From the IMG/VR virus record IMGVR_UViG_3300035698_017588, positions 31,002-95,001 of that record: 64,000 bases of DNA; one strand, 5' to 3'. The stretch is from a virus. The notes under the pieces are model-generated. The model was not told the DNA's origin, did no database searches, and saw only the letters and a list, made by a program, of their open reading frames with translations. Made by a program: the position numbers and the translations under genes. Shown here in pieces: positions 7,762 to 60,902 of this stretch; position 1 is the stretch's first letter, and the number at the start of each line of letters is the position of its first letter.

Positions 7762-8861
7762 TCTACGCCTATGTTATCAACTGTGTACAGTGAATCGCCT
7801 TCATGGATAATCTCACTGTTTAGCTGCTCCATTAAAGACTTATTATATTTATCTGCGTGTTTATCACGATCAAAATATCGGCTAAAGAGATCTTGAACTT
7901 GCATCCTGGACGGAGCACCATGACCCCTATTAACTTCGGGCTCAAGGGAATCTTTCAGTCGAAGGAATCTGACGACCTTTGCTCCCTTATCCAACAATTC
8001 TTTCCGGTATTGAGTCGTCAAATCATCAGGGAGATACTGCTCCGCAATAATCCGAAAATGATTCCCCATCACATCATGTTCCGATAAACCAGCCACATCA
8101 TCAAGACCAATCGTTAACATATGAGGGGGAATCATCTGGCCAGGATTATCAGTGTACATCAGAGGACGCAAATCCACGAAGCTATGCTTCCCGGTGTCAC
8201 AATCGTATTCAACAAAACCATGGGGCACAACACCCTCATCGAATGAGAAAGGAATCGGCGACCCCACATAGTGAGTCTTCACGCCAGCCCGATGATAACA
8301 ATGAAAATGTCCGGTGAAGACCTGACCAGCCGCTCGGTGGTCGAAATTAATGGCCTTTTGTTCTTGGAATAAGAAGCAAAGGTTGTACGAGGCCCCGATA
8401 CATCCAATGTGAGTGAGTAAAACGTCGCTTTGGCGACATTCCTTGTCGATCTCGTCGACGACGTCCATATAAGCCTTGTCGACGGCGATGAACGGGATCA
8501 TCCAAAATCGACGGTCAAATAACTCGACGCGATGAATGTCTTCCAGCACGTGACAGACGTCCGCTAACGGTCGGAGTGATGTGATTTTCCAGTTGTACTT
8601 GTAGTACATGTCATGATTGCCTGGAAAGACATACCATTCTTGATCGTATTCTCTTTTCGTAGCCGCGAGAAACTCATAAACGACGTGCATCACTTCAACG
8701 TTAATTGACTCACGATCATGGAAGAGATCACCCAAAACAAAAACGTGTTTAATACCGTTCTTCTGGGCGTAACTCCGAATCGATTTCGCTGCCATCAAAA
8801 TGTCTTTGGTCCGACCGTGAAGACCAAAATGAAAATCTGCCGTTAAAAGGACTTTGCTCAT
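7758..8861 (-). CDS. Mre11/SbcD/gp47-like metallophosphoesterase nuclease
   Basis: ADFH, GDLFH, GNHD, LLTH, GHFH, YVGSP motifs. Confidence 0.9.
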   Translation of the reverse strand: MSKVLLTADFHFGLHGRTKDILMAAKSIRSYAQKNGIKHVFVLGDLFHDRESINVEVMHVVYEFLAATKREYDQEWYVFPGNHDMYYKYNWKITSLRPLADVCHVLEDIHRVELFDRRFWMIPFIAVDKAYMDVVDEIDKECRQSDVLLTHIGCIGASYNLCFLFQEQKAINFDHRAAGQVFTGHFHCYHRAGVKTHYVGSPIPFSFDEGVVPHGFVEYDCDTGKHSFVDLRPLMYTDNPGQMIPPHMLTIGLDDVAGLSEHDVMGNHFRIIAEQYLPDDLTTQYRKELLDKGAKVVRFLRLKDSLEPEVNRGHGAPSRMQVQDLFSRYFDRDKHADKYNKSLMEQLNSEIIHEGDSLYTVDNIGVD

Positions 8862-11694
8862 GTCTGAAACAATTCCAGCTCAAGTAATTGATGAAAATCT
8901 GATCGATGCCTGTTTCCCAATGGAAACCTATCGACCACAACAAAAAGAAGTAATACAAGGGATAGTTCGTTCAATCAACGCAGGCTACAAGTACATCATT
9001 GCCGAATGCCCAACCGGAAGCGGCAAAAGCCCAATCGCTGTGGCAATCGGAGCCCTAGCAGGAACCGAACGTGCTTACTACATCACAACCACAAAACACC
9101 TGCAGGACCAGATCGAAACGGACTTCCCAACCGTCGTCACGCTCAAAGGCCGCAATGCCTATCCTTGCACCGCATACCAGAACTTCCAGACTCGACTCTA
9201 CACGATCCTGGGAAAAGACCGGTACACCCAACAAGCAGGTCAAGAACTCAGCTGCGACGAAGGATACTGCAAAACCAACACCGGCAAAGCCAGCTGCAGC
9301 ATGTGCCTCCCAAGCCAAGAGGACAAAGACTCAGGCCGAGTCCAACTGCCACAGGACATGAACTACAGCTTCTGCCCATACTACGAAAAGCTCTACGGCG
9401 GGATCAACGCCCAAACCTGCTCGATGAACTTCAACAACTTCATCCTGCACCTGAACGCCGGGCACCGATTCTCCAAACGCAAAATCCTCATCATCGACGA
9501 ATGTTTTCATGCACACACATTCATCGAAACAGAAATTGGAAGAATTCCAATTGGAAAAATAGTAAACCAAAATCTGCAAGTAAGGGTAAAAAGCTGGAAT
9601 TTCGAAGAAGAAAAATTCGAATATAAACGAGTCACCAGATGGCTAAAAAGAGATGAAAACCAGACATTCAGAGTTCTGGCTGGCAACAGAATAATGTATC
9701 CCACTATGGACCATAAGATTTATACCCCAAATGGTTTAAAAAAGTTGTCTGATTTAAGGATCGGAGACCAAGTCATGGTAAATCAAAATCAGATCACAGA
9801 TGACCAAGAACAATTGGTCTTAGGGTCCTTGTTGGGTGACGCATCACTTGATATTGTCGAATCAAAAAGAATTTCGAAAAAACATGTCAATAAAGGCAAT
9901 AGAGCAAGAATAAGTTTTCGACATGGGCCGAAACAATATGAATACTTGCTTTGGAAACATTCTTTATTAAAAGGACACGTCGGAAATAAACCCAAACTAG
10001 AAAAATCGAAAGGTTTTGGAAAAACAACAGCCAGATTCCAAACAAATTGCGGGTTTTATGATACGATCATGCCGACAATATTAGGCGGTCGTAAAACACC
10101 AAAAGATTCATGGTTGAATAAAATCGGACTACTCGGTCTGGCAGTGTGGTACATGGATGATGGTGGAAAATCGAATGAGACGTGCAGATTTCACACTCAA
10201 GGATTTGATTATTCAGAAGTGGTTACATTAAGAAATTGGTTAACAACCAAATGGGATCTTGCAGCCAGCGTGCACGAAGAGAAAAAAGAAGATGGGAGAA
10301 TCTATTTCTATATCTCATTAAACAGACAATCATCAAGAAGGCTAATGTGGATTATATCAAAATTTGTGCCAACACATATGAGATATAAATTACTTGAATT
10401 CAAAAAATGCAATCAAGACGGGGTTTTAGACAAGTCCATTGAGAACGATTCATGGCCTCAATACAACGACCAAATAGAAAATCAAGATGTAAAAGAAACG
10501 ACATTTCAACCGATCATCTCGATCGATCAGTATAAATATGATTACACCTATGACTTAGAAGTAGAGGATAATCATAATTATGTTGCAGGAAACACTGTTG
10601 TTTCTAATTGCCACAACACCGAAGCCAAGCTGCTTGATTATCTCGAATGTACAGTGAGCAGCCGACACATCGAAACCAAAATCCCAGAACTCACCAACCC
10701 GATGCAATACGTCACATGGTTGCAACAGATCGGGGCGTTGCAATATCTCAAGGACAAAATCGAAACAGCTCGGGAAAGCCAAAATCTCCGGATGATGACG
10801 ACTTATGAGGGACTGTTCAAGAAGTACATCAATATGATGATCGAGGTCAAGGAAGATCCAACAGGGTGGGTCGTCGAGTACGAAGAAGACAAGAAAACGG
10901 ACACGACCAAAGCGACTCTCAAACCGATTTTCGCTCACCGGGCTGCGAAGAATTTTCTATTCAAGTTCGCTGATCACATCGTCTTCTTGAGTGCGACGAT
11001 TCTCAATGCTAAGACTTTCGCACGAAACCTTGGAATCCAAGAGGGAGAATACGCCGCTATGCGTATCCCATCGCAATTCCCGATTGTTAATCGCCCGATC
11101 ACGACTGATTTCGCCGGTCGATTCACTGGTGGCAAAGCCAAAATGAACCAATGGATCGGTGATATGTCTAATAAGGTAGTCGATATCGCACTCCGTTACA
11201 AAGAGCATCGCGGGATCATCCACACTCACTCATTCGGCATTCAACGAGCCCTCATCGAGAAGCTTCCACCGGTAGTGAGTAATCGATTGATTCAACAATT
11301 CGATTTTCAGACCAAAACCGAAATGATCGAAGCCCATGCGAAACGTCCGGGCTCTATTATCATCGCACCGGCCATGCATGAAGGTGTCGACTTGAAGGAT
11401 GATCTGAGCCGATTCCAGATCCTTTGCAAGGTGCCTTTCGCCAATTTCTACGAGAACAAGCAACTCGAAGCTCGAATGGAGCTTGACTCAGAATATTATG
11501 ACTACATTACCATACTCAAAATTATACAAAGCGTAGGGCGCAGTGTTAGAAGTATGACAGATTGGGCAGATACTTTTATTATTGACGAGTCTTTTGACCG
11601 AATTTATCGGAATAATCAAAATTCTTTTCCATTGTGGTTCAAAGAAGCCGTAACCAAGGAGATACCAAATGTCCGCAAAAAGGAAAAGATTTAA
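8860..11694 (+). CDS. DinG/Rad3-family SF2 helicase with intein
   Basis: Q motif YRPQQ, Walker A PTGSGKS, Cys cluster, DE|CH, SAT, EGVD, KVPF, QSVGRSVR. Confidence 0.92.
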   Translation: MSETIPAQVIDENLIDACFPMETYRPQQKEVIQGIVRSINAGYKYIIAECPTGSGKSPIAVAIGALAGTERAYYITTTKHLQDQIETDFPTVVTLKGRNAYPCTAYQNFQTRLYTILGKDRYTQQAGQELSCDEGYCKTNTGKASCSMCLPSQEDKDSGRVQLPQDMNYSFCPYYEKLYGGINAQTCSMNFNNFILHLNAGHRFSKRKILIIDECFHAHTFIETEIGRIPIGKIVNQNLQVRVKSWNFEEEKFEYKRVTRWLKRDENQTFRVLAGNRIMYPTMDHKIYTPNGLKKLSDLRIGDQVMVNQNQITDDQEQLVLGSLLGDASLDIVESKRISKKHVNKGNRARISFRHGPKQYEYLLWKHSLLKGHVGNKPKLEKSKGFGKTTARFQTNCGFYDTIMPTILGGRKTPKDSWLNKIGLLGLAVWYMDDGGKSNETCRFHTQGFDYSEVVTLRNWLTTKWDLAASVHEEKKEDGRIYFYISLNRQSSRRLMWIISKFVPTHMRYKLLEFKKCNQDGVLDKSIENDSWPQYNDQIENQDVKETTFQPIISIDQYKYDYTYDLEVEDNHNYVAGNTVVSNCHNTEAKLLDYLECTVSSRHIETKIPELTNPMQYVTWLQQIGALQYLKDKIETARESQNLRMMTTYEGLFKKYINMMIEVKEDPTGWVVEYEEDKKTDTTKATLKPIFAHRAAKNFLFKFADHIVFLSATILNAKTFARNLGIQEGEYAAMRIPSQFPIVNRPITTDFAGRFTGGKAKMNQWIGDMSNKVVDIALRYKEHRGIIHTHSFGIQRALIEKLPPVVSNRLIQQFDFQTKTEMIEAHAKRPGSIIIAPAMHEGVDLKDDLSRFQILCKVPFANFYENKQLEARMELDSEYYDYITILKIIQSVGRSVRSMTDWADTFIIDESFDRIYRNNQNSFPLWFKEAVTKEIPNVRKKEKI
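9502..10608 (+). mobile_element. Intein (369 aa) with LAGLIDADG endonuclease in helicase motif II
   Basis: Starts CFHAHT, block B TMDH, LGSLLGDAS and WYMDDG, ends YDLEVEDNHNYVAGNTVVSN|C; removal restores IIDECHN. Confidence 0.93.
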
Positions 11695-13180
11695 TTGCCA
11701 TAAATGCGGAAAATCATCAGAAAAAACCGTTCCCAATTTTTACAAACAACTTAAAATCTACGGTTGTTCATATTGCACAGATTGTGCTATAAAGATAAGG
11801 AATTCTAATAACTCAAAAAGAGAAAAAGAAAGAAATAAATCGAAGATAAAGAATAAAGATCTTGTTGGGGCAATATGTGAGAAATGCGGGCAAACCAGAT
11901 CGATTCAATATAGATTAGCAAAACAATCTAAACTATGCTACTCTTGTGCGGCCAAAGAATCACATAGATCACATCGCGATTCATATTTAATAGGACAAGA
12001 CAAACTAAAAAACAATAATAATTTCAAAAAACTAGTATCAAATGGTATAATGGCGGCTTCAACGCCAGAACAAAGATCAGAGAACGCAAGAAAATCTGCT
12101 GAATATTGGAATAATCCAGAAATTAAAGAATGCATCTTAAAAAGACGCATGGAGCCCGAATACCGCAAAACCATGAGGGAAATTTGGGATAGACCGGGAT
12201 ATAGAAAAGCGGCCTCAAAAAGAGCCAAAGAACACTTTAAAAAGTTGTGGCAAAACGAAGAATTCCGAAACAAAATGGCAATAGCAAGAAGCAAAATGCC
12301 TAGGGAATCAAGCCAACAAAAGATTCTTTCGAATATACTCGATGATCTTAATATAGAACATTTCAAGGAATACCCAATAGGACCTTGGTGTTTTGATTCA
12401 TTCATCCCAGAACATAACTTATTAATAGAAGTACAGGGAGAATATTGGCACTCACTACCAAAGGCTATTAGAAACGATAGATCGAAGAGAACATATATTA
12501 CTAATTATACCGACTACGATGTGTTGTATTTATATGAAAGAGACTTTTATTCCAACAACACTGTCCTGAATAAATTATTAAGTAAATTCGGCATATCTTC
12601 TGTAGATGAAAAAAAATTTGATTTTTCAAATGTATCAATAAAAGTAGAAGAAAATAAGACCATTTCAGAATTTTTATATTCATATCATTATCTCGGGACA
12701 ATAACACACAGTAACAATATTTGTTTTTATCTCAATGATGAATTAATAGCGGTTGGGTGTATAGGGCCATGTTCAAGAAATGAAACGCCAAAAAGACACG
12801 GCTTAACCAACAATGAATGTCGAGAATTAAGAAGATTTTGTATAAAACCTGGATATCATAAGAAAAATTTCGCTAGCTGGTGTTTGAGTAGAATAAGGTC
12901 AGAACACAAAGAATCAAGACCAAAAACAAAAAGAATTTATAGTTTCGCCGATAGCACCATGGGGCACAATGGCACAATCTATAAAGCGGATAACTGGATA
13001 TATGATGGTGACACTCAGCCATCATATTATTATATCAGTAATAATGGTTGGGTTATGCACAAGAAAAGCCTGTATAATATGGCCATAAAAATGGGTTTAA
13101 AAGAAAAAGAGTATGCAGAATTACATGGATACGCAAAGCAACATACAGATAATAAATCAAGGTTTTATAAAGACATCTGA
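11669..13180 (+). CDS. Free-standing homing endonuclease (Zn ribbons, helical repeats, Vsr/DUF559-like nuclease) fused to Mom-like acetyltransferase domain
   Basis: CxxC pairs, FDSFIP..LIEVQGEYWH, then HYLG..ELRRF..SFAD..GHNGTIYKADNWIYDG; AT-rich. Confidence 0.8.
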   Translation: MSAKRKRFNCHKCGKSSEKTVPNFYKQLKIYGCSYCTDCAIKIRNSNNSKREKERNKSKIKNKDLVGAICEKCGQTRSIQYRLAKQSKLCYSCAAKESHRSHRDSYLIGQDKLKNNNNFKKLVSNGIMAASTPEQRSENARKSAEYWNNPEIKECILKRRMEPEYRKTMREIWDRPGYRKAASKRAKEHFKKLWQNEEFRNKMAIARSKMPRESSQQKILSNILDDLNIEHFKEYPIGPWCFDSFIPEHNLLIEVQGEYWHSLPKAIRNDRSKRTYITNYTDYDVLYLYERDFYSNNTVLNKLLSKFGISSVDEKKFDFSNVSIKVEENKTISEFLYSYHYLGTITHSNNICFYLNDELIAVGCIGPCSRNETPKRHGLTNNECRELRRFCIKPGYHKKNFASWCLSRIRSEHKESRPKTKRIYSFADSTMGHNGTIYKADNWIYDGDTQPSYYYISNNGWVMHKKSLYNMAIKMGLKEKEYAELHGYAKQHTDNKSRFYKDI

Positions 13181-16806: not shown

Positions 16807-17464
16807 GGCACGTTATTGTGACAGTAAAGAGTTAGAACGATTTTGGTTCGAATGGGCAATGGCATCCAGCACACCCGATTTCGAACCGTTACGACAGGTA
16901 GGAGCGATCTACAGCCGTGTTAAACCCGACCAGATTGTAACACAGAAGACTCAAACGTGCAAGAATCCCTGGCTTCCTCTGAAAGAGCATTTTTTGGTCC
17001 TCTTTGACCCCGTACATGTTACAAGCGAGGCGGGTGACGTTAATTTCGACCTCGAAAGAATACAAGTCAGGGTAGCCGACAGGGTAACACATCAGAGATT
17101 ACTTGACGATGGTTACTACCTGGAGCCGACCGAGTCTTACGCCTGGGAAAGGCTGTTCCTTGAGGTCAAAAAGATGTGTGAAGGAATATCCAGAAAATTC
17201 TCTGTCGAACCTGATTCAAGGATGGAAATCGAACAGGAAGGTCTGGTTATGGTCATCGATAAAATACGGAACAAGAAAATTCGGTATGAGCCAGGCTTGG
17301 CTCCCGTCTTTAATTTTCTGACGACAGCGATCCATCGCTGTATATACAACCACCTGAGGAAATCGACTCGTTATTCAAAGCAGATGCACGAGTTGCGAGA
17401 ACGATTAGACAAGGGTCACCTTGATGTTTCTATGAGAAGTTACAAGCCTATTTCAGGAGTTTGA
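16805..17464 (+). CDS. gp55-like phage late sigma factor (region 2 only)
   Basis: YCDSKEL N-terminus, MCEGISRK, EIEQEGL, YEPGLAPVFNFLTTAIHRCIYNHLRK; near gp46/gp47-like genes as in T4-like phages. Confidence 0.7.
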   Translation: MARYCDSKELERFWFEWAMASSTPDFEPLRQVGAIYSRVKPDQIVTQKTQTCKNPWLPLKEHFLVLFDPVHVTSEAGDVNFDLERIQVRVADRVTHQRLLDDGYYLEPTESYAWERLFLEVKKMCEGISRKFSVEPDSRMEIEQEGLVMVIDKIRNKKIRYEPGLAPVFNFLTTAIHRCIYNHLRKSTRYSKQMHELRERLDKGHLDVSMRSYKPISGV

Positions 17465-17465
17465 A

Positions 17466-17720
17466 ATGAGCAGAGTTAGCGATTTGTTGGATGATGCAGA
17501 TGAATTCATCATCATTACCATGAAGAAAAATAATGATGCCCAATTAGATGTGGGCGTCATTATGGGTTGTGACCCCGGTGGTCCAATGCTTGACGTCCTA
17601 GACAATGTTGTTAAGGACGCTAAAGATGCAGCGAGCAGTTACAGCAAGCGTGCTGAGACGGACAGCGATCAAACCGAAAGTGACGGTAATTCAAAAACCG
17701 GTTACGCAAGCAGCGTCTAA
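17466..17720 (+). CDS. Small acidic hypothetical protein
   Basis: 84-aa ORF starting 1 nt after the previous stop. Confidence 0.5.
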   Translation: MSRVSDLLDDADEFIIITMKKNNDAQLDVGVIMGCDPGGPMLDVLDNVVKDAKDAASSYSKRAETDSDQTESDGNSKTGYASSV

Positions 17721-18633
17721 TAAACAGACCCTTCAGCGTACTACTCAAGTACGTCACCAACCGATTCCACCACGGACCCAAGTACAACCAATTCCACCAA
17801 GCGAAGCGGCCCCGGTGGTCGCTCGAAGAAACCAATCGGTTAACACGGTCCGAGACCGAATCAACAGGACACGGCGGGAATTAGTCCCCCAAGCTCCTAG
17901 ACGAAAAGTCCCACCCAAAGTCACCTATCTCAGTGCTGACCTAACGGTCGATCAGATCGAAAAAGTCAAAGCACTCAAGGGATCAGCCCAAGGCCGATAC
18001 CTGGTGATTTTGGGTAACGGGCCATCTTTAGAGCAAGTCGATACTAACCGCTTAGCACAGTACGACAATATCAAGCTCTGTACGATCAACGTCCCAGACA
18101 AACGATGCTGGCCAACACCATACTGGGCCTTCTATGATCGATCACAATATCATCGTCACAAAGAATTATACAAGGGCTTTGCAGGAACCGTCTTCAATAG
18201 CACCGGCATCAAAGAAGGCAACGTAGGAAGCATCAAGTTCAAACACAACCCCGGACTAGGTTGGAGTAGAGATATTTCTAGGGGAGTATATGTCGGCATG
18301 TCGAGTGTCTACGCCACCCTTCAAATCGCTGTGTACATGCAATTCAACCGGATATACGTCGTCGGTTGCGATATGAGCGAAAGCATGGACCTAGGCAAGA
18401 CCCATTTTTACGGGATAAACCCAGACGTCAAGCCAGAGGAACGCAAAAAGCGTTTTGTCAAGGAAGCGAATTGGTATGATAGGATGACGGAAGTTTTAAA
18501 AGAAGACGAGAAACAAAAAATCGTGTTTTGTAGTAAGGGTGTAAATAAGTGGCCATTCATGAGTCACTTTACTACTGTGAGGCCAGATCAAGCCACACAA
18601 TTTATCATCCAGGATACGGGTTATGCCAGCTAA
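17605..18633 (+). CDS. DUF115/Maf/CstII-like glycosyltransferase-fold protein with basic Pro/Gln-rich N-terminal extension
   Basis: VILGNGPSL, SSVYATLQIAVYMQFNRIYVVGCD, THFYG. Confidence 0.75.
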   Translation: MLLRTLKMQRAVTASVLRRTAIKPKVTVIQKPVTQAASNKQTLQRTTQVRHQPIPPRTQVQPIPPSEAAPVVARRNQSVNTVRDRINRTRRELVPQAPRRKVPPKVTYLSADLTVDQIEKVKALKGSAQGRYLVILGNGPSLEQVDTNRLAQYDNIKLCTINVPDKRCWPTPYWAFYDRSQYHRHKELYKGFAGTVFNSTGIKEGNVGSIKFKHNPGLGWSRDISRGVYVGMSSVYATLQIAVYMQFNRIYVVGCDMSESMDLGKTHFYGINPDVKPEERKKRFVKEANWYDRMTEVLKEDEKQKIVFCSKGVNKWPFMSHFTTVRPDQATQFIIQDTGYAS

Positions 18634-19030
18634 GTTCTATGTCGCGACCACTCTTTCTAATGCAGATCAGGCCAAAATAGCAATTAATCGACTGAGTGAC
18701 TTTGGTCATGAAGTCAGCTACGATTGGACGACCCATGGTTTCGCACCAGTCGAAGTCAGGAAAGAGATCGCAGCCAAGGAATTGCAAGGCGTTATTGATG
18801 CGGATGTTTTATTCGTTATCTGGCCCGGTGGTGGCGGAACCCATATTGAGATGGGTGTCGCGATATCTCTAAACAAGCCGATCATCTTTGTTGCTCCAGA
18901 GAGTCTTGAAAGAGAAGTATCATTTTACCAACTCGACAATGTATTGAGAATGAGTGAAATGAGCAAGGCCATCGAGGTCGCCCACAAGCATCTATCCCAA
19001 TACGAAGGACAATTAGCAGATTATGAGTGA
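18623..19030 (+). CDS. Nucleoside 2-deoxyribosyltransferase / nucleotide N-glycosidase family protein
   Basis: FYVA start, ELQGVIDADVLF, GTHIEMGVA with the catalytic Glu, KPII. Confidence 0.8.
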   Translation: MPAKFYVATTLSNADQAKIAINRLSDFGHEVSYDWTTHGFAPVEVRKEIAAKELQGVIDADVLFVIWPGGGGTHIEMGVAISLNKPIIFVAPESLEREVSFYQLDNVLRMSEMSKAIEVAHKHLSQYEGQLADYE

Positions 19031-19625
19031 CATCAAATGGGGTTCATTGATTATTCAATGCAACGACGCACAATCTATCCGACCAGCTTCTGAGCTTGCT
19101 CACAAACAAAGAGTCGGCAATGTAATCGTCCCGCCCGAGAGCATCGAGCAAAGCATCATGGGACGCAGCATGATGAAGGCGAAATACCATCTCCTGACAA
19201 CAATCAAGAACCCAAGCCAACGGGCTCCAGGCTCTGACAAATTCATCAACATCAACGCAGATGTTTTTGACGTCGAAGGATTCGAAATCGTTCCAATGAA
19301 AACGGATAACCCGCAAGTCTTGCTCAAAGACTTGCGGATGTGCTCTGACTTTCTGAAAAACAACCTCAACCAACAAGTAACTATTGGTTGGAACCTTTCA
19401 GGTCACGGTCTCAAGGACAAAGAGACCCTGCAGCTTTTAGATTCAATCGCCAAGGGCTACAGACCAGATTATATCCGGTTTGATGAATCCCAAGGGCTGA
19501 TCTGCACAATCGCGAAAAAGATTTGTGCGACGAAAATGGCTCTTCCATTCAATGCTGACGTTGAATCTGACTGGAAAATCATCGAAGCTTCGGAAGCCCT
19601 CAAGCTTGCGAAACAACCAGCATGA
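19023..19625 (+). CDS. Hypothetical protein, weakly reminiscent of a degenerate DeoC-like TIM barrel
   Basis: 200 aa; VIVPP, PGSDK, GFEIV spacing loosely follows DeoC; weak. Confidence 0.4.
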   Translation: MSDIKWGSLIIQCNDAQSIRPASELAHKQRVGNVIVPPESIEQSIMGRSMMKAKYHLLTTIKNPSQRAPGSDKFININADVFDVEGFEIVPMKTDNPQVLLKDLRMCSDFLKNNLNQQVTIGWNLSGHGLKDKETLQLLDSIAKGYRPDYIRFDESQGLICTIAKKICATKMALPFNADVESDWKIIEASEALKLAKQPA

Positions 19626-19643
19626 GAACGATCTGGGACTGAA

Positions 19644-19880
19644 ATGAACGAACAGCCCGAATTTTATCCGGCGTGGAAAGTGAAAGGTGGTCTGTTCTGG
19701 TCATTCAGAATCATGTTAGTGCATTTATTGTTCATCTTAACTCCGCTAGCAGGACTCTTCATAGACCCATTGATGGTTCCAGTCGGACTGTGCATCTCAA
19801 TGGGCTGGGCATACACAGAATTTAATAGGTATTCTAAATGGTGGAACAAGACCCTCAGAAAAGACCGAAAACCATTTTGA
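19644..19880 (+). CDS. Small two-helix membrane protein
   Basis: Two hydrophobic segments and a basic C-terminus. Confidence 0.55.
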   Translation: MNEQPEFYPAWKVKGGLFWSFRIMLVHLLFILTPLAGLFIDPLMVPVGLCISMGWAYTEFNRYSKWWNKTLRKDRKPF

Positions 19881-19920: not shown

Positions 19921-21051
19921 ATGAAACTTGGAAAAATTAACCTCGTCGTAGACGGACAACATGGCTCAACTGGCAAAGGTCTGATCAACTCATACCTTGC
20001 ATGGCGAGACAGGCCCGAAGTCATCAGTTGCACCAACATGGCAAACGCAGGCCACACCGCCATTCTCCCGGACGGAACAAAATTCGTCGCAAAAGCCCTG
20101 CCAAGCTCCACGATCCTTAACAAACTCGACAACTACTCACCAGAAGTCGTTGTCGGAGCAGGAGCAGCATTCACCGTCGACCAGCTGCTCAAAGAACTGA
20201 AAGAATGCGGCAACCCGAACTTAACCGTCCATCCAAGAGCCGGAGTGATCACGCAAGAACACAAAGAGCGTGAATCCGAACTCAAGGGCGGTACAAAGCA
20301 CATTGCCAGCACAATGCAAGGCTGCGGAGCCTTTTTAGCTGATAAAGTGATGCGAGGACCAGATGTCAAGCTGGCTGGAGACTACGAAGATCTGTCCTTC
20401 TTCGCTCCGAGTTTTCTTGCTGATCGTCTTGGCTCCAAAAGCAAGTATCTGCCCGATCTGTTGATGCAATATTTAACCACCGGTCGCACTATTCTCCATG
20501 AAGGCTCCCAAGGTTTTGGGCTTGATATCAATCACGGGAATCAATACCCGAATTGCACAAGCCGTCAATGTACAGCTTTGCAATCAGTCGCTGATATGGG
20601 GCTGCCCCATCAAGTTATTGGCGACGTTTACATGGTGATCAGGCCCTATCCAATTCGAGTTGGGAATGTGGTAGAAAAGGGCAAGACTGTTGGCTACAGC
20701 GGCGACCCCTACTCCGACAGCAAGGAGATCACTTGGGAGGAAGTCGCGACTCGATGCGGTGCTCCACCCGAAGTGATGGCCGGAGAGCTAACAACGGTCA
20801 CGAAGAGGCTTCGACGGGTGTTCGAGCGGTCAGATATTCAGTTCCGCCAAGCTGCAATGGTCAACGGGGCCACGAAAATTGCTTTGAACTTCGCGAATTA
20901 TGTTGATTGGTCTTGTTATGGCAAGAACAATTGGGATGAACTTGGCGACAAGGTTCACAGTTTCATTGCGAAGGTCGAAGACGCGGCTGGAGTGCGGGTT
21001 GAGCTTGTTGGGACCGGGCCGAGCGTTGAACATGTTGCGGTTCGTCCGTAA
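19921..21051 (+). CDS. purZ: PurZ-type N6-succino-2-amino-deoxyadenylate synthetase (PurA paralogue)
   Basis: DGQHGSTGKG (Ser-Thr where PurA has Asp-Glu), NAGHT, EGSQG, YPNCTSR, RPYPIRVGN, TTVTKRLRR, LNFANY (where PurA has TKLD), VGTGP. Confidence 0.82.
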   Translation: MKLGKINLVVDGQHGSTGKGLINSYLAWRDRPEVISCTNMANAGHTAILPDGTKFVAKALPSSTILNKLDNYSPEVVVGAGAAFTVDQLLKELKECGNPNLTVHPRAGVITQEHKERESELKGGTKHIASTMQGCGAFLADKVMRGPDVKLAGDYEDLSFFAPSFLADRLGSKSKYLPDLLMQYLTTGRTILHEGSQGFGLDINHGNQYPNCTSRQCTALQSVADMGLPHQVIGDVYMVIRPYPIRVGNVVEKGKTVGYSGDPYSDSKEITWEEVATRCGAPPEVMAGELTTVTKRLRRVFERSDIQFRQAAMVNGATKIALNFANYVDWSCYGKNNWDELGDKVHSFIAKVEDAAGVRVELVGTGPSVEHVAVRP

Positions 21052-21147: not shown

Positions 21148-21675
21148 ATGACTGAAACAAATCCAATTATGGCCTCGGCTAAATATCCACTTGGTAGCAC
21201 GGCATGGTTCCTGGGATTAGAGCCGCATGAAAGTTATCAATTGGGTGAACAATATGACATGTTCATGTTCGAGCATCCGATTTTCGCACTTAGCCGAACG
21301 CCGTTGCGACATATTTGGAAGAGTAGTCGTGCATTGCCAAAGTTAGAACATGAATCTTTTGACAATATAATCACTCTGGTTACGAGTCGTATCTTAGTCC
21401 AGTCAATGGTTGTCGAGAGTATCGAACGAAGCGAAAATACAGGGGAATTCGTTTATTTGGATAATGATCTAGAGGTCTGCTTACCAGAGCAAGTTCTCTA
21501 TTCTACGAGGCGTGAAGCTTCGCGAGAACAAACACGAATTCTTAAAATGGTCAGAGACTGGGCAATAGCACAATTGGAAACGAACAATGAAATGTTTTCC
21601 ATGCGAAGGAATAGCAAAAAACAACAAAATCGACGTCGTGATCGTCGATCCGGGAAAGCCCCTAATCAGGGGTAA
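21148..21675 (+). CDS. Hypothetical protein
   Basis: 175-aa ORF with a strong AAGGAGG RBS. Confidence 0.7.
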   Translation: MTETNPIMASAKYPLGSTAWFLGLEPHESYQLGEQYDMFMFEHPIFALSRTPLRHIWKSSRALPKLEHESFDNIITLVTSRILVQSMVVESIERSENTGEFVYLDNDLEVCLPEQVLYSTRREASREQTRILKMVRDWAIAQLETNNEMFSMRRNSKKQQNRRRDRRSGKAPNQG

Positions 21676-24600
21676 TTCTAATCAAGCACGATCGGAGTTC
21701 CCGTGGACTAATCCTCGCAATCGGTATGACGTCAATAATAGTGGCGATGTAACGGCACTTGATGCCCTCTTAGTTATCAATGCATTAAATCGAGGCATTG
21801 AATTCGACCCTTTCGTAGAACCAGAATTCTTCTACGATGTGAATGGCAGTCGGACTGTTTCGGCACTAGATGCACTGCAAGTCATCAATTACATTAATGG
21901 CCAAGACACCAACAATAATGGCGTCGTAAACAGCGGAGATCTTGACACACAACGCCTTATCGCAAAGAAAATCGAAGGCGTAAAAAGACAAGCAACCCGT
22001 CTACGGGCACAAGAATCGAACGAGCCAATCAGACTTCAAAGCAGTGGAAACGGGGCAGCATTAAGATTCGAACTATTGTTTCCATTCAGAACAATGGGTG
22101 GAGCTTTCCGATTCACCCTACAATCAGTAGAATGGGGCGAATCAGTATGGTCGCCAGAAATTCGTATCCCAAATTCTGTCTATCACAATGCTTTAAGTGA
22201 CCAACCAGCTGCTGGAGCCAATTATTCTTCTGACATGGCGGACGTCAGACAACAGATGTTGGACGCGGTCTTAGCCGTATACAACAATACTCCGACTTTC
22301 GATAACATCACAGCCGCAAACGTCACTATCCAACAATATGTTAATCAGGGATTCTGTTGGTATGATATCGTCGTCGATTGTGTGCCACCAGCGGGTTTTT
22401 GTGGAGCAGGTCAAGAATATGATTTCACCATCTTTCGAACGACATCGACGAATCGAGCTCTAGCAGCACAGTCAGCTGGATTTTATGCTGAAAAAGTTTT
22501 TTCATTCTCTGGACCAGGAGGAAGTTCAGCCTTAGGTTCGACTTGGAGCACTGATAGAAGACTAACAGATGGAACATTGACCTTCCAATTCAGAAGACCA
22601 ATTTCTATCCAACGAGGAAATATCAATAGCTTCGTAAGTATGACTGTCCCGTGGGACATGAATTTCAGTGACTTTGCGGCCTTGGTGGACCAAACCATCG
22701 GCCCATTGTATGGCGGTGCAGGACAAGGAAATACATCTGTAGAGAATTATACTGGTAGTTTTCTTTTCAACAGCAAAATCGGTGAGAACACTCTTGGAAT
22801 TCGAGTAAAGCAGTTTCCATTTCTTGCAGTAGACCCAGCCACATTGAGCGACCTCTTATTTGAGATCGATGGAAACAATACCAAAATGCTGGTTCCATAT
22901 AATAATGTAACTCCAGGCATTACACAATTATTCTTTAGAGAATGTGGCGGCACCGGTCCAACAAACGTCAGCGGTGGCGGATGCGGACCCTGCAATCCAG
23001 GTGGTGGCTCCAACGGCTCCAACGGCTCCAACGGCTCCAACGGCTCCAACGGCTCCAACGGATCAAACGGCTCCAATGGATCAAACGGCTCTAATGGATC
23101 GAACGGCTCTAATGGATCGAACGGCTCTAATGGCTCAAATGGTACCAATGGACAAGATGGAGGACCAGACAATACTTGTGTTTATGATTTTCTAGAAGTG
23201 CCCGTCTGCAACACTCTGCTTGACCCCAATTTAACGCCTCGGCAAAGAGGATATGGTGTATATGGTGCGAGCCACGAATGGGATCTCACTAATATCGGAT
23301 ATGCTAGTTTTACTATCAACTTCACATTCGGTGGTGGTCAGACCGCATCTACTCAACCAATCATCGTAAACGATACGACGATCTCTGCGTCGCCATTTGT
23401 CGACTATAACACCGAAGATGTGATAAAAAGTGGCGATCAACCGCCATCATTTTTCGCATTGAATAGTTTGATCCTCGAAGCAATATTCAATCTATATAAT
23501 TCGAATAATGCATTCCCATACATCAGTCGAAGTGAAATCCAGGTTTACAATTTCCATGTCCCAACTGGTATAGCACCATCCACGTATATCGTGAAATGGG
23601 GCTTCCGAATTAAGAAGGCCCCCTTCGACGGATTCGAATCAATCAGCGTTACCACGTCAACCAAAACCAACAAGATCTTCTTCAACGACACCGTATCTGG
23701 ATCGACGTTTCCAGGAGTTTCGATCGAAAGATGGCTAAGGTTTGTCGGTGGTTCAACTGGAACATTCAATATCGTTGCTACAATCGACCGCCAATTCGAT
23801 GATGTCGATGACGTGCTGTTGTATCAAAATATCCCAGCCAATATTACACTGGCTGATCTCAAGACATTATTAAACACCCAGAGTTTCTCTAATGTTGGAA
23901 CTGGTGGACAATTCAATGCTGGGCAATTTGAAGTAACCCCATACACAAATGGAACAATGTCTGATCCAGTAAACAATGGATCACTATTCAGAATCGCATA
24001 CTTGTTCACATCACCGCTTCAGCCGGTGATTAATCAAAGAAGATTCATACAAATCGAGGCTGAAGGTCTCAACGACAATATTATCCACAATTATTTCAAC
24101 AAGACAATTAACTTAGATAATTGTGGAGAGATTAATGGTGTGGTGAATGGGAAAACGCCAGCGACATTCACACCATTTCAAATCAGATTCGAACCAGGAC
24201 CAAACCCAAATGTTCCTATAAACATCTACTCTGTTTATGTGAAATACAGTCTAAGAAGCACTGTTAACACAGCAAACAGAACTATCGTTTACATGCCGAT
24301 AAGCGAATATGATGGAACTTCCGCTCCTAACTGTGTGGACTGGGGAATCAACGGTGTAAGTGGAGAACTCAACACTGACTTGAACTTAGCAGAGCTTCAA
24401 ACAACAAGCTTAGACGTATCAGGCAATGAAAGATTCATCTATACCAGATTCAACCAAGGGAGCGGAGAAAGCTTCGCAACTCAGCTGGGCTTTGAATTCG
24501 AATCGCCATGGACCAACAGTCCAAATCGAGTAATCGATGGTGATACCGGTCTTGCGATGCTTCCCGGAATGACAGGATACAAACCCAGCCGGATTGAAAA

Positions 24601-27600
24601 AGCCGAGCTATTGATTCTGGCGGGAAAGCCCGACAACCTAGAAGCACAAACACCAATCGAACTGTCATACTTCCCAGACGAGAGAAAAGTTTACAGCTCT
24701 GTGGGCACCACCCCGACCCACAATCAATTCAACGTAGTTCTGATGGTCTCAAGAAATTCGGGGGCCATTCACGGACAATTGACTACTCCGAACATCACAC
24801 AGTTTGTCGATGATTTGGAACTAGCACTAGGTTCAACATCTTCTGTTGCAGTCGTCGAATTTGGTAAAGTGCCCTCCTTATTCTCCGGAAATAGCAATAC
24901 AGTTCTTGGTTTCACACCATTAACGAACAAACCAGCGATAATCGCAGCAATTGACGGCATCGTTTACAATGCAAGCGAATCAAAGTGGGGACAAGTCCAA
25001 GGCTTAGACGCAGCCGTCACTCTGTTCAATAGCCTTGGAACATCGCCATCACGAAAATTGTTGATCTCACTCAGCAATGGTATTGAGACACGACAAGCAA
25101 GAATCGAAAGAGGCACTAGTCCGACTAGTTGGCTTGTGAGAGCTTCACAGTTTTCATCTAATGGAACAGATGTAGTCTTATCAAATCAAAGCAATGACTT
25201 CCCTGGTATGACATTGCCACTTGGAGTCAGCTACGGTGAACCAGACGACTATACCGATTTTCTAGACAGACTCGCAGGAGCGATCTACGCCTACAACAAT
25301 GTTCCGTACGCCGATCCAAAAAATCTGCTTATTGAACTACCAGTATCATGCACTGAGGGTATTTCAGAGCCGAACGATTTGGTGATTTCGACACAAATCG
25401 GTGCCTCGACTTGGCGAACCATTCTACCTTCTAACAGGATCATAGCTTCAACGGGCAATCCGTTCTTTTGGGGCTATGATTTTGATGAAGGCAGTGGATT
25501 CTTACGCAATATCAGAATCGACGCACAGACCGTCTTTAACGACGCCGTCGTTGGGAACTGGAATAATCTTCCAGCTATCGACTTCAAAAGAGTAGGCATT
25601 GAATTGGAAGAAGCTGGCTGGAACACACTATGCTTGCCTCTTGGAGAGAATTTGCAAGGTGGTGGAGATGGAGGGGGATCGGACGGCGGTATTGTCACAG
25701 ATGGATGTGATCTGAGCAACATTCAAGTCAGCTTGACTTACGATCTGTTCACAAGGAATCCAATCAACATCTATGCCTCGGCTATGAAGTACGTCGTTCG
25801 AGACTTCATCAATCCTTCTATTAGAGCCACAATCATTGTGCCAATTGAAGGATGGAACAATCTGAACCTCTCCTATGGACAAACACCATGTTCATATTGG
25901 GTGAGCAATACGATCCCTACTCAATATAGCCGATATCCCGCCCCGACATCTGGTAGCGTGGTAAATGTATCAGGAGTAGCGAACTTCATTTCGCCATTGT
26001 TCGGACTTGGGGGTAATCCTCAAACGACGATATCCACGGTGCCGACACACGATCAAGATAACGTAATGGGGCGGATCGTTTCTGGTGATCCAAGATGCAC
26101 ACTGACAAGAAGCCAAGTTGGATATCGATCGTGTGTGGTCGAGTCGATGGAACTTCTGCTATTATCGTCACTTGCTAACAATCTACTGGCTGATCCACCA
26201 TTCATTGAAAGAATCTTCGATGAAGAAATTATTTTCTTCGATCCCGGCAACTGTGATGTGTTAGACGTCGTTTTCGCAGTTGACAATTCTGGAAGCATGA
26301 ACGGACCGATCAATAATGTTAAATCCGGTATCGATCAATTGATCGATTTCATCTTTAGTATCAGTCCCTTAGGACGCATTGGTTTGGTGAGTTATGGTCA
26401 ATCATCTAACAATGGTTTACCAATTGTTTATCTCTCGCCCACGTCCGTAGCTACCGCGATAGAAAGAGACACCATTCGACAAGCAGTCCAATTATACCAA
26501 GCAAGTGGTAGTAGAGAACCACACGGTTCAGCAGTAAAAACAGCCGTTGACGAACTATTGGCAGTACCATTTTCTGGTTTAACGTTCTCCGGAGCACCAG
26601 AAAATATCGAGCCACAAAACAACTCGGAAATCAGACCGAGCATTATTAACGGCCAGCCTACTAGCAATTATGAAGCCGTTGGTGTCGTCAATGGAAACTG
26701 CACAGGAACACTAATTGCACCAGAATATGTGTTAACAGCGGCCCACTGCATGTTCGACCAGAACAATGTTAAGATACCGCTCAGCAGTATGAGCTTTGAG
26801 GTTGGCGGAACCGTTTATAATGTAGTCGAAGAGACAACTCATCCAAATTACGATGATGCATTCTTCGAAGTGGGATTTGACGCCTCTATATTAAAACTAT
26901 CGACACCAGTGACTGGAGTAACCCCGTATGGTCTACTAACAGTACCACCAACCGTTGGCGATACATTGACCATAGTGGGCTTCGGAGAGGGTGGCAACAG
27001 TGCATCACCTCAGCCCAACTTTGGCACAAAAAGAGTAGGACAAACGCCACTAGAAAACCTGACTTTCGTCCATTTAAACTGGAGTTATGATCCGGGCGAA
27101 GCGAACACAAGTTTCGGCGATTCGGGAGGACCATCATTTGTCGATGTCAACGGCACAGATTTAATCGCTGGAATCGTTAGCGGCGGTGCCGGTATTCCTA
27201 GGGATACACCGGGTGTGTCATCATTCAACACCAGGATAGACACGATACTACCATGGATCAATTCCGTGTTAAGCGGAGGTGGTGGTGGAGGTAGCGGACC
27301 CGTCGATCGTTCGCAAGTAGTCATATTAATCACTGATGAAGGATCGGCAGATGACGGATATGGTAGTTCCAATGAGTCGGATGCTTTCATTCGGACACAA
27401 GCACAATACGCTGGTGCTAATGATATCCCGATTTTTAGCGTTCAAGTGGCGAACAATTCTGGAGATGGAGTAATCTTCGATTTCCATAAAATCAACGCTC
27501 AGGAAAGCTCAGGTGCGGCAGTCAAGCAGATCGATGGTTTGATTGTTGAACCGTTAATCAAATTGTTCACCAGATTCTGTCTTACAGCAGTAGGCACTTC

Positions 27601-28693
27601 AAACACAGAAGTAGTAACACCGAACCAGTGTACGGGTCTTAACAATGGCAATATGCTGATCGATCTGGAATTCGACAGCGAAGCCTATCCGAATAGACAA
27701 TCTTTTCAATACAATCTTCAAGCGATTGAGATATTGCAAACCACTGGCAATGAAGTATTCTGGCCTTATAACCCACCAGCATCTCTTCAATATGACACCA
27801 GACCAGACGGCAATTGGTTGAACTATCCAAATATCGACCGACAGGGTGTTGAGATGGGTCTGGCACGATGGGAAGGTTTCAGAATCTTCACTGACCTACC
27901 GGATGGAACTGGAGTTGTACAGTGTACTGGTATCAATGTCCGACTAATCGAAGGTCGAGGCAATATCAACATCCCACCAATTGAAATCGCTGGTGTCGGT
28001 CAAGTTGCAAGATGTTTCACAAATGTGACTGTTGCGACAATCAATGAAGGTGGCAACGGAAACCCAACAGTTCAGGTTATCACTCTAGATAACGCTACTG
28101 GTGGAGATTGGCAGATAGAAATACCAGACACCACAGCTGGAACAGTAACATCTGTTTTGGGTTGGGATGCTACGGCCACAGATGTAGAAAACGCATTAAA
28201 CGCTCTCCCGCCACTCACTGGCAGAGTCGCAGTAACAGGAAATAATCCAATATTCACAATTACTTTCAATGCTGGGATTAGCCCAATTAGTGAATTGATT
28301 CTGATAAACAATCTTACCTGTACTGATCAAGCGATCACGATTGTACCAGATGGGCCATATTGTTATGAAGTGCCTAAGCCAGGACCGAATGACAATGTTG
28401 ATCCGCCAGATGAATCATGTAATTTCTGCATCCCAACGGTGACACAAACCGTAAACCTTCATTATGAAGGCATTAGTGCTGGATGTGATACATCGACACG
28501 TAAAATAGCTTGCAGATTCACCAAGATTCCTGGTGATTACAACTATTTCAAATTGGTCAATGGCGTTTTGCAAACGGTACCTGCAGATTATGAAGCAGTT
28601 CCCGGCGACAAGATCGTTTTGTTAAACAAATCGGTCGAACAGACCAGCGTTATTCTCAGTAAAGTCAGTCGGTCATTTACTGAGAAGATATGA
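21587..28693 (+). CDS. 2368-aa multidomain putative virion/adhesin protein: planctomycete-type dockerin pair, (GSN)15 tract, two vWA domains, trypsin-like serine protease
   Basis: YDVNNSGDVTALDALLVINALN / YDVNGSRTVSALDALQVINYIN; DVVFAVDNSGSM MIDAS and VILITDE; IINGQP, CTGTLI, LTAAHC, DASIL, GDSGGP. Confidence 0.85.
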   Translation: MKCFPCEGIAKNNKIDVVIVDPGKPLIRGNSNQARSEFPWTNPRNRYDVNNSGDVTALDALLVINALNRGIEFDPFVEPEFFYDVNGSRTVSALDALQVINYINGQDTNNNGVVNSGDLDTQRLIAKKIEGVKRQATRLRAQESNEPIRLQSSGNGAALRFELLFPFRTMGGAFRFTLQSVEWGESVWSPEIRIPNSVYHNALSDQPAAGANYSSDMADVRQQMLDAVLAVYNNTPTFDNITAANVTIQQYVNQGFCWYDIVVDCVPPAGFCGAGQEYDFTIFRTTSTNRALAAQSAGFYAEKVFSFSGPGGSSALGSTWSTDRRLTDGTLTFQFRRPISIQRGNINSFVSMTVPWDMNFSDFAALVDQTIGPLYGGAGQGNTSVENYTGSFLFNSKIGENTLGIRVKQFPFLAVDPATLSDLLFEIDGNNTKMLVPYNNVTPGITQLFFRECGGTGPTNVSGGGCGPCNPGGGSNGSNGSNGSNGSNGSNGSNGSNGSNGSNGSNGSNGSNGSNGSNGTNGQDGGPDNTCVYDFLEVPVCNTLLDPNLTPRQRGYGVYGASHEWDLTNIGYASFTINFTFGGGQTASTQPIIVNDTTISASPFVDYNTEDVIKSGDQPPSFFALNSLILEAIFNLYNSNNAFPYISRSEIQVYNFHVPTGIAPSTYIVKWGFRIKKAPFDGFESISVTTSTKTNKIFFNDTVSGSTFPGVSIERWLRFVGGSTGTFNIVATIDRQFDDVDDVLLYQNIPANITLADLKTLLNTQSFSNVGTGGQFNAGQFEVTPYTNGTMSDPVNNGSLFRIAYLFTSPLQPVINQRRFIQIEAEGLNDNIIHNYFNKTINLDNCGEINGVVNGKTPATFTPFQIRFEPGPNPNVPINIYSVYVKYSLRSTVNTANRTIVYMPISEYDGTSAPNCVDWGINGVSGELNTDLNLAELQTTSLDVSGNERFIYTRFNQGSGESFATQLGFEFESPWTNSPNRVIDGDTGLAMLPGMTGYKPSRIEKAELLILAGKPDNLEAQTPIELSYFPDERKVYSSVGTTPTHNQFNVVLMVSRNSGAIHGQLTTPNITQFVDDLELALGSTSSVAVVEFGKVPSLFSGNSNTVLGFTPLTNKPAIIAAIDGIVYNASESKWGQVQGLDAAVTLFNSLGTSPSRKLLISLSNGIETRQARIERGTSPTSWLVRASQFSSNGTDVVLSNQSNDFPGMTLPLGVSYGEPDDYTDFLDRLAGAIYAYNNVPYADPKNLLIELPVSCTEGISEPNDLVISTQIGASTWRTILPSNRIIASTGNPFFWGYDFDEGSGFLRNIRIDAQTVFNDAVVGNWNNLPAIDFKRVGIELEEAGWNTLCLPLGENLQGGGDGGGSDGGIVTDGCDLSNIQVSLTYDLFTRNPINIYASAMKYVVRDFINPSIRATIIVPIEGWNNLNLSYGQTPCSYWVSNTIPTQYSRYPAPTSGSVVNVSGVANFISPLFGLGGNPQTTISTVPTHDQDNVMGRIVSGDPRCTLTRSQVGYRSCVVESMELLLLSSLANNLLADPPFIERIFDEEIIFFDPGNCDVLDVVFAVDNSGSMNGPINNVKSGIDQLIDFIFSISPLGRIGLVSYGQSSNNGLPIVYLSPTSVATAIERDTIRQAVQLYQASGSREPHGSAVKTAVDELLAVPFSGLTFSGAPENIEPQNNSEIRPSIINGQPTSNYEAVGVVNGNCTGTLIAPEYVLTAAHCMFDQNNVKIPLSSMSFEVGGTVYNVVEETTHPNYDDAFFEVGFDASILKLSTPVTGVTPYGLLTVPPTVGDTLTIVGFGEGGNSASPQPNFGTKRVGQTPLENLTFVHLNWSYDPGEANTSFGDSGGPSFVDVNGTDLIAGIVSGGAGIPRDTPGVSSFNTRIDTILPWINSVLSGGGGGGSGPVDRSQVVILITDEGSADDGYGSSNESDAFIRTQAQYAGANDIPIFSVQVANNSGDGVIFDFHKINAQESSGAAVKQIDGLIVEPLIKLFTRFCLTAVGTSNTEVVTPNQCTGLNNGNMLIDLEFDSEAYPNRQSFQYNLQAIEILQTTGNEVFWPYNPPASLQYDTRPDGNWLNYPNIDRQGVEMGLARWEGFRIFTDLPDGTGVVQCTGINVRLIEGRGNINIPPIEIAGVGQVARCFTNVTVATINEGGNGNPTVQVITLDNATGGDWQIEIPDTTAGTVTSVLGWDATATDVENALNALPPLTGRVAVTGNNPIFTITFNAGISPISELILINNLTCTDQAITIVPDGPYCYEVPKPGPNDNVDPPDESCNFCIPTVTQTVNLHYEGISAGCDTSTRKIACRFTKIPGDYNYFKLVNGVLQTVPADYEAVPGDKIVLLNKSVEQTSVILSKVSRSFTEKI
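23006..23140 (+). repeat. 15 x 9-bp coding tandem repeat (Gly-Ser-Asn)
   Basis: ggctccaac x6 perfect, then nine synonymous variants. Confidence 0.95.
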
Positions 28694-39876: not shown

Positions 39877-40327
39877 TCGCTATACTGGCAAAAGAGAAGC
39901 GTGCGAGCAAATCCAAGATGGCATTATTTGTGATGTATGCGGCGTCGAACTCAACTACGAGTTCGACGACGAAAACTCTCCCCATGTCTCTTTCGAAATC
40001 CACGATCTAACAGGCTGTGAACCATATTATCACGAAGATCGTCTAAAGTTCACAGCAAAAGAAGCTTTTGAACTATTCGAAATCGATTGGGATGACGATA
40101 TTGAAATGGACAATTATGTGACCTTCAATGATAACCCATTCGTTTATTGTCGATCGCGACCATGTCTTGAAGATGTCCTTAAGGACACTTTATTCGCTCA
40201 AGCACCATTCGAGGACGAAGTCTGGCTTCAAAACGCAATGATGGAAGCCAGATTAAAAATGATTGAACGTGTTTTAAGGCAGAAACTTTTTACTCCCGAG
40301 CGTTTGGGAATCAGTTTCGAAGATTAG
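39806..40327 (+). CDS. Hypothetical acidic protein
   Basis: 173-aa ORF; likely start at MKLYKS. Confidence 0.55.
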   Translation: MLQSASHWVYFGSMKLYKSTPVFDRYTGKREACEQIQDGIICDVCGVELNYEFDDENSPHVSFEIHDLTGCEPYYHEDRLKFTAKEAFELFEIDWDDDIEMDNYVTFNDNPFVYCRSRPCLEDVLKDTLFAQAPFEDEVWLQNAMMEARLKMIERVLRQKLFTPERLGISFED

Positions 40328-40396: not shown

Positions 40397-40399
40397 CTC

Positions 40400-40472: not shown

Positions 40473-40486
40473 CTACACAAAGGAAT

Positions 40487-59429: not shown

Positions 59430-59441
59430 TGGTTTCTCGCG

Positions 59442-60183: not shown

Positions 60184-60189
60184 ACGAGA

Positions 60190-60895: not shown

Positions 60896-60902
60896 GTCGC
60901 AC

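Follow-up and report, generated by a model that had tools for sequence, protein, structure and literature searches.

Does the use of 2-aminoadenine (Z) in place of adenine extend from small phages to those with genomes of several hundred kilobases? To our knowledge, all experimentally confirmed Z-genomes belong to small siphoviruses or podoviruses of ~40-80 kb that use DpoZ or PrimPol. The question is raised by an open reading frame (ORF) at positions 19921-21051 (plus strand) of a 64,000-nucleotide stretch of viral DNA, hereafter the window, which corresponds to bases 31002-95001 of the 95,001-bp IMG/VR virus record IMGVR_UViG_3300035698_017588. A sequence-only reading of the window had seen in this ORF the signature of the synthetase PurZ and had placed it in a jumbo-type phage with a family C polymerase, as a possible Z-genome in a new lineage. 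Here we report that the ORF product is, judged from its sequence, a PurZ-type synthetase rather than PurA. We assign a probability of roughly 0.7 to the reading in which it is a functional PurZ feeding dZTP synthesis, with Z placed opposite T by the DnaE replicase of the phage.

The ORF is intact, with an ATG start and no internal stops, and encodes a 376-aa homologue of PurZ-type 2-aminoadenylosuccinate (dSMP) synthetase, an assignment carried by Pfam, PHROG and Protein Data Bank (PDB) matches, by diagnostic residues and by trees. It matches Pfam Adenylsucc_synt (1.4e-33) and PHROG 1211, '2-aminooxy adenylosuccinate synthetase' (5.2e-63). Among solved structures the best matches are PurZ of phiVC8 (6fm1/6fko, 1.7e-43) and of S-2L (7odx, 9.3e-42), ahead of every PurA-type structure: P. 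horikoshii PurA (2.6e-35), 7vf6, a 'PurA-like adenylosuccinate synthetase' (2.4e-19), and E. coli PurA (~4e-14). The translation contains GQHGSTGKG (the P-loop, with Ser16), TTVTKRLRR (with Arg296) and LNFANY (with Phe324/Tyr327), and the GSTGKG and NFxxY motifs first taken as a PurZ signature are thus confirmed.

Residue correspondences were read from a MAFFT alignment of 172 sequences, with determinants taken from published lists. According to Poubanne et al. (PMC12884076), 99% of PurA have Asp13, where every phage PurZ and PurZ0 has Ser; at this catalytic position, Asp in E. coli and S14 in phiVC8, the window protein has Ser16, within GSTGKG. The position of phiVC8 T262, Gly in E. coli, is Thr291. 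In phiVC8 numbering, F295 and Y298 contact the adenine ring of ATP, and W252, Y244, G256 and P233 further discriminate PurZ (metaGPA preprint, 10.1101/2025.10.22.683976); the PurZ-specific residues compared here are named in that preprint and by Czernecki et al. (PMC8342488). The adenine-stacking pair is found as Phe324/Tyr327, replacing the GTP-specific TKLD motif, in columns that hold K/V in E. coli and M/Q in PurZ0 (TMLDQ-type motif), and the four further residues are Trp272, Tyr264, Gly280 and Pro244. The Ser, Thr, Phe and Tyr determinants are unchanged in 32 of 32 IMG/VR relatives, and 125 of 127 representatives keep the Ser, a pattern that points to purifying selection on what would be a PurZ pocket.

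An Arg in the TTVTKRLRR loop had led the sequence-only reading to suggest intermediate substrate specificity, S-2L PurZ having Leu there. The difference from S-2L is correct at the level of sequence: Arg296 aligns with Leu of S-2L, SH-Ab 15497 and PMBT28, as well as with R303 of E. coli and K267 of phiVC8. The suggestion itself is not supported, since L, K and R are all found in this column among validated PurZ and PurZ0. Czernecki et al. (PMC8342488) equated R303 with K267, placed the latter 8.5 Å from C2', a distance at which it cannot stabilise a ribonucleotide, in an enzyme that is dGMP-specific, and accounted for the deoxy preference by a PurZ-specific insertion. This insertion is present in the window protein (the Tyr264/Trp272 segment). 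Because Arg296 is the equivalent of K267 in phiVC8 PurZ and the deoxy preference is ascribed to the insertion, Arg296 is not evidence of intermediate specificity.

Relatives of the window PurZ were sought in deposited and metagenomic collections. An exhaustive search of representatives returned 2,997 clusters at E <= 1e-3, and many of the top matches are 730-800 aa long with two matched stretches, consistent with intein-bearing PurZ copies. The protein recurs at 99% identity in a second contig and at 39-86% identity across more than 100 clusters. A metagenome-scale collection holds a dense PurZ family at 55-99% identity on contigs of up to 408 kb, and IMG/VR holds 35 contigs or loci with relatives at 39-62% identity; five IMG/VR genomes with relatives are 356-395 kb long, with direct terminal repeats and an estimated completeness of 100%. 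Among deposited phage genomes 204 records matched, none of them reaching 60% identity; Bacillus phage vB_BpsS-140 came closest at 42.5%, and the largest genome among the best 100 of the 204 is 83 kb. Identity to the window protein is 33-38% for PurZ phages and 26-29% for PurZ0 actinophages, and no relative was found in species-representative prokaryote genomes.

Two trees place the protein among these sequences. In FastTree (LG+gamma, 349 columns, with E. coli PurA as the sole root) it falls in a 25-tip clade (0.998) within a 71-tip clade (0.953) that holds every huge-phage contig; the sister of the latter comprises PurZ of phiVC8, Bm1, S-2L, SH-Ab 15497, PMBT28 and Kokobel2 (union 0.993), and PurZ0 branches close to the root, outside this union. 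IQ-TREE (LG+G4, 1000 UFBoot, 56 taxa) supports the huge-phage clade at 92 and its union with the group holding the characterised PurZ at 85, with PurZ0 again outside. The clade consists of uncultured phages of ~230-410 kb where contigs are long. The window protein thus groups with characterised PurZ to the exclusion of PurZ0 and of E. coli PurA, the root. The earlier proposal of an early-branching PurZ is not upheld, both trees making the huge-phage clade sister to the characterised group; on this phylogeny the protein is a distinct subfamily inside ATP-type PurZ.

PurZ of phiVC8 (6FM1/6FKO), S-2L (7ODX), SH-Ab 15497 and PMBT28 have the same fold and family at 33-37% full-length identity, and share with the window protein the Ser for Asp13, the Thr262 and Phe295/Tyr298 equivalents and the insertion with its Tyr244/Trp252 equivalents; the window protein differs in its separate huge-phage clade, in a His for Phe12 and in longer insertions before the TTVTK loop. 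Unlike the phages of characterised PurZ, the window phage has a genome 5-10 times larger, DnaE in place of DpoZ (PolA) or PrimPol, and no adjacent DatZ/MazZ. PurZ0 actinophages (Wayne and Ghobes; compared here were Litotes, Archimedes, Goodman and Galactica), which encode DutZ and DmtZ, share with it the Ser at the catalytic position, an accompanying NDT-superfamily gene and the lack of DatZ. Against this, PurZ0 stands outside the clade at 26-29% identity and has M/Q where the window protein has F/Y, and the DutZ of that system (dUTPase fold) has no dUTPase as its counterpart on the contig.

The phage is of the size and polymerase type first proposed. CheckV rates the 95-kb record 27% complete, which implies a genome of ~350 kb, and the coding density of the contig is 94% under table 11. 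Pfam finds on the contig a family C polymerase, DnaE, which is split among several ORFs of the minus strand and has an interrupting Hint domain (intein); the C-terminal end of its first piece (PHP domain, Hint and the start of the Pol III alpha domain) lies at 1-1524 on the minus strand (Pfam PHP 5e-36, DNA_pol3_alpha, finger domain, HHH_6), and the remaining replicase parts lie upstream of the window. The sole PolA-like match on the contig, to a protein of 394 aa, scores 30.7 bits and falls short of the cut-off. A family A DpoZ was accordingly not found as the replicase of the window phage, which has the split DnaE instead, as do its DnaE-type relatives (type A, below); DpoZ is not universal in Z phages, S-2L using PrimPol. 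The contig also encodes a DnaB-like helicase and, within the window, an SMC-like ATPase. Inteins of the LAGLIDADG type interrupt a DEAD/ResIII helicase (window 8854-11694, plus), an NAD-dependent epimerase/dehydratase (window 31664-33829, plus) and RecA (contig 17440-19662, minus).

A pathway can be proposed in which the PurZ-type enzyme would join dGMP and aspartate, with phosphate supplied by ATP or dATP, into N6-succino-2-amino-2'-deoxyadenylate, which host PurB and host kinases would convert to dZMP and then dZTP, and the DnaE-type replicase would put Z opposite T. The NDT-type and DERA-fold neighbours of purZ are candidate dAMP destroyers, which would split dAMP into adenine and deoxyribose-5-phosphate for further breakdown and so do the work of DatZ or DmtZ. 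From the observed family, pocket residues, clade and gene context we infer catalytic activity and Z in virion DNA, with unequal confidence. PurZ activity (dGMP, Asp and ATP or dATP to dSMP) is predicted with high confidence, detectable dZ in virion DNA is somewhat favoured, and complete A-to-Z replacement falls short of an even chance. The convincing PurZ copy makes the window phage and its many uncultured relatives candidates for the largest Z-DNA genomes. The fullest form of the proposal, in which DnaE-type phages of ~350-400 kb have 2-aminoadenine genomes, the largest known and the first to be replicated by a family C polymerase, and remove dAMP by a hitherto undescribed route, an NDT N-glycosidase coupled to a DERA-fold enzyme, rather than by DatZ/MazZ or DutZ/DmtZ, is speculative, and we consider it improbable as a whole.

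The genes invoked for dAMP removal belong to a conserved neighbourhood: the order MptE-like, NDT-like, DERA-like, purZ and downstream ORF is kept in 17-22 of the 35 loci, with identities of only 22-46%. The NDT-superfamily protein (18623-19030, plus; 135 aa; Pfam Nuc_deoxyrib_tr 2.1e-6; syntenic in 17/35 loci) is NMP N-glycosidase-like, a candidate dNMP hydrolase or transferase and possibly a DmtZ analogue. Tyr6, Pro68 and Glu76 are invariant and Asp61 near-invariant among 13 homologues, corresponding to the NDT triad and the 'transferase' Pro. The AF2 model of the window protein (pLDDT 89.5) has NDTs, BcmB, DNPH1 and MilB as Foldseek neighbours, and the solved proteins nearest to the family profile are the CMP N-glycosidase 4jen (BcmB, 3e-7), then BlsM and MilB. 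DmtZ, a dAMP hydrolase/deoxyribose-5-phosphate transferase (PMC12884076), belongs to the same superfamily, keeps the Tyr/Asp(Asn)/Glu triad and the Pro, and shares as structural neighbours DNPH1, MilB and the NDTs of D. psychrophila, B. psychrosaccharolyticus and E. faecalis. In an uncertain register, an invariant Asn13 of the NDT-like family lies near the position of DmtZ Asp12 (dAMP specificity). The NDT-like protein differs from DmtZ in having CMP N-glycosidases as nearest sequence relatives and in its pairing with a DERA fold, undescribed for Z phages.

The next gene (19023-19625, plus) encodes a divergent, shortened, 200-aa member of a DERA-fold (deoxyribose-5-phosphate aldolase-like) family, the fold being assigned from the model of a homologue (locus L009, 8543-9241; pLDDT 89.8, pTM 0.87). 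In a structure search with this model DERA filled the top 48 rows (Z 23.1, rmsd 2.2 Å, 197/217 residues, TM 0.73-0.80), the next fold scoring Z 16. The family profile matched no PDB sequence, nor did hhalign give a significant match to E. coli DeoC; the fold was therefore recognised only through predicted structure. Matching of motifs suggests that the family has Arg where E. coli has the Schiff-base K167 and Lys where it has the relay K201, the DeoC hhalign being too weak to fix the register. Because an NDT-type hydrolase yields deoxyribose-5-phosphate, the DERA substrate, a chemical link between the two neighbours is plausible. E. coli DeoC served as the coupling enzyme in the DmtZ assay of Poubanne et al. 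(PMC12884076), and NDT-family enzymes have been experimentally linked to Z metabolism (PMC12884076; metaGPA preprint, 10.1101/2025.10.22.683976).

Several observations weigh against the proposal of a functional PurZ feeding Z-DNA synthesis, or against the part given in it to the NDT/DERA pair. Six-frame profile searches of the whole 95-kb contig found no MazG (PF03819), DUF550 (PF04447), YfbR-type HD, dUTPase or PurB, and tblastn of S-2L DatZ, MazZ and PrimPol against the contig returned nothing; the absence of DatZ/MazZ partners first noted for the window thus extends over the rest of the contig, with 73% of the genome unseen. A DatZ-type HD protein is missing from all eight DnaE-type relatives, of which five have a completeness of 98% or more. 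Known systems that do not remove dATP achieve partial substitution only, and efficient use of dZTP by a family C polymerase would have to be assumed. In the pocket, the His for Phe12 (His14) is the sole mismatch of the compared positions, most relatives having Trp or Phe. As to the pair, the NDT-like protein has no BLAST similarity to DmtZ and an hhalign probability of 6.6%, which leaves orthology unsupported, and CMP or hm-dUMP is the substrate of its nearest solved relatives. The DERA-like copy of the window phage is shortened, has 18-23% identity to its family and lacks the conserved PIKVSGN (the K201-like lysine motif). In one relative, G002, the pair stands among pyrimidine enzymes, far from purZ.

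This last arrangement is not isolated: the DERA-like gene, with or without its NDT-like partner, lies beside dCTP-deaminase-like, ThyX and RNase T-like genes in G002 and G004, distant from purZ. With the genes so placed, the NDT/DERA pair may act on a pyrimidine nucleotide and may adjoin purZ by position alone. An adenine-exclusion role for the pair is accordingly a tentative suggestion, to which we give rather little credence.

The partner question was pursued in 12 large relatives, which fall into two types. Type A (G001, G002, G004, G006, G007, G008, G011, G012 and the window phage) has the split DnaE with a small, weak PolA-like protein; type B (G003, G005, G009) has a full-length PolA and no DnaE. 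The DERA-fold gene is present in all eight type A relatives and in none of type B, and the NDT-like gene in six of the eight by profile, plus a divergent one in G002, and by profile in none of type B. MazG rose above the cut-off in one relative of the 12, the type A genome G004. DatZ-type HD proteins occur in type B only, in G003 (the genome of locus L042, C1:91977-95489) and G005 (the genome of locus L043, C1:44756-48235), the third genome, G009, being 64% complete. These two are YfbR/DatZ-like with the Y20-S/T22 signature, a signature found on dZ-enriched contigs (metaGPA preprint, 10.1101/2025.10.22.683976), and are encoded ~10 kb from the full-length PolA in complete genomes of 363-377 kb; in G003 the adjacent ORF weakly matches S-2L MazZ. 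A search by blastp with phiVC8 and SH-Ab DatZ, SH-Ab DUF5664-DUF550, Litotes NDT-Dut and Archimedes Dut against the contig and the ORFs of the 35 loci gave one match only, on a 22-kb contig. The Y20-S/T22 HD protein and full-length PolA of type B put PurZ in canonical Z-type company within the clade. By gene content, huge-phage PurZ appears to occur both with near-canonical partners (type B) and without them (the type of the window phage), and the G003 and G005 phages may be stronger Z-genome candidates than the window phage itself. As complete DnaE-type relatives are free of DatZ and DUF550, the partner gap is not merely a sampling effect.

This gap speaks for an alternative in which PurZ is active and, DatZ/MazZ being missing, the genome is an A/Z hybrid or Z production is confined to a certain stage of the infection. 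Czernecki et al. (PMC8342488) count a dATP-removing enzyme in the set needed for complete replacement, and co-expressed clusters reach partial incorporation (metaGPA preprint, 10.1101/2025.10.22.683976); no DnaE-type relative has DatZ and only one has MazG. Other dATP or dAMP sinks may exist, however, in the NDT-like gene and in the second dUTPase-fold paralogues that are present in relatives, functional convergence of this sort being on record in PurZ0 phages (Poubanne et al., PMC12884076), and the partners may sit in the unseen 73% of the genome. We consider partial substitution a minority possibility.

It is very improbable that the gene is instead an auxiliary with ordinary PurA activity, converting IMP to adenylosuccinate and raising the AMP/dATP supply for a very large genome. 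Membership of Pfam Adenylsucc_synt would suit such a role, nucleotide-biosynthesis genes are frequent in huge phages, and some relatives encode a PurB-like lyase. The protein and all its relatives nevertheless have Ser for the Asp13 of 99% of PurA (PMC12884076), NFANY stands in place of the GTP-binding TKLD, and the protein is nested among PurZ in the trees and matches PDB entries at 1e-43 for PurZ against 1e-14 for E. coli PurA. That it is a decaying, non-functional remnant carried along in a block (~13.3-21.7 kb) that is syntenic as a unit, including genes unrelated to nucleotides (SMC-like and others), and whose DERA-like copy looks degenerate in the window phage, can be practically dismissed, because the ORF is full-length without stops, recurs at 99% identity in a second contig and at 39-86% over more than 100 clusters, and keeps its active-site residues invariant.

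Homology to PurZ has already led to the prediction of dZ-DNA in more than 2,000 viruses (PMC13128860), so metagenomic PurZ homologues have been counted in bulk; PurZ and its signatures are likewise known, as is the part played by NDT enzymes. The PurZ literature searched, full text included, holds no huge or jumbo genomes, family C polymerases or DERA-fold partner in a PurZ context, and a search for PurZ or adenylosuccinate synthetase in jumbo or huge phages returned nothing relevant, with PurB alone mentioned for PhiMa05. The notion of a new lineage therefore stands, huge-phage PurZ with DnaE being undiscussed in that literature. The lineage is abundant in metagenomes: its proteins form more than 100 clusters at 90% identity, and IMG/VR has 35 of its contigs. 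If the proposal is true, Z-DNA extends to genomes 5-10 times larger, the handling of dZTP versus dATP by a family C polymerase becomes a question, and a third solution to adenine exclusion joins DatZ/MazZ and DutZ/DmtZ. If the DNA is ordinary, the clade is an example from nature of a PurZ that does not serve a Z-genome, and would be likewise informative.

Other genes complete the purZ block. Upstream lies an MptE-like/sialyltransferase-like protein with a low-complexity N-terminus (17605-18633, plus; Pfam PF01973 1.2e-7, below cut-off; PHROG 4603 6e-4; syntenic in 22/35 loci). Between the DERA-like gene and purZ is a 78-aa hydrophobic ORF (19644-19880, plus), with a homologue only in the near-identical contig L007. 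Downstream is a conserved 175-aa ORF (21148-21675, plus; syntenic in 19/35 loci) that matches neither Pfam nor PHROG. Directly downstream of purZ, between it and this conserved ORF, relatives have an Endo IV-like gene (AP_endonuc_2 TIM-barrel, 5.7e-10; L009:11252-12082 and equivalents in L008, L010, L013, L017 and L036); the gene is absent from the contig of the window. A 2,368-aa protein with dockerin, collagen-like GSN repeat, VWA and trypsin-like protease domains (21587-28693, plus) has homologues of 1,600-2,000 aa at the same position in relatives.

The sole HD ORF of the contig (47149-47811, minus) was considered as a DatZ and rejected, its kin being MESH1/SpoT-type (p)ppGpp hydrolases (4yf1, 3nr1, ~3e-12); a peptide deformylase homologue (46515-46946, minus) adjoins it. 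In a 503-aa protein at 11669-13180 (plus), an N-terminal HNH/homing-endonuclease-like part is joined to a Mom-family domain at the C-terminus (Pfam 5.5e-20; PHROG 'Mom-like DNA modification protein' 3.8e-27). The protein hints that this phage has a second DNA modification directed at purines. The ThyX-like protein at 36338-37711 (minus) has 457 aa, about twice the usual length, with Pfam Thy1 (2.7e-18) covering residues 19-224.

Two adjoining tRNA genes at 40327-40473 both have the anticodon UCA, which reads UGA (labelled tRNA-SeC by ARAGORN), and may be suppressors for particular genes, global recoding being argued against by the long ORFs and the coding density under table 11. Towards the end of the window (58000-64000) the GC content rises to 50-53% and ORFs are short and overlapping on both strands. 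Finally, a volactin-family actin homologue is encoded at 3564-4850 on the minus strand (Pfam PF25216, 3.9e-38).

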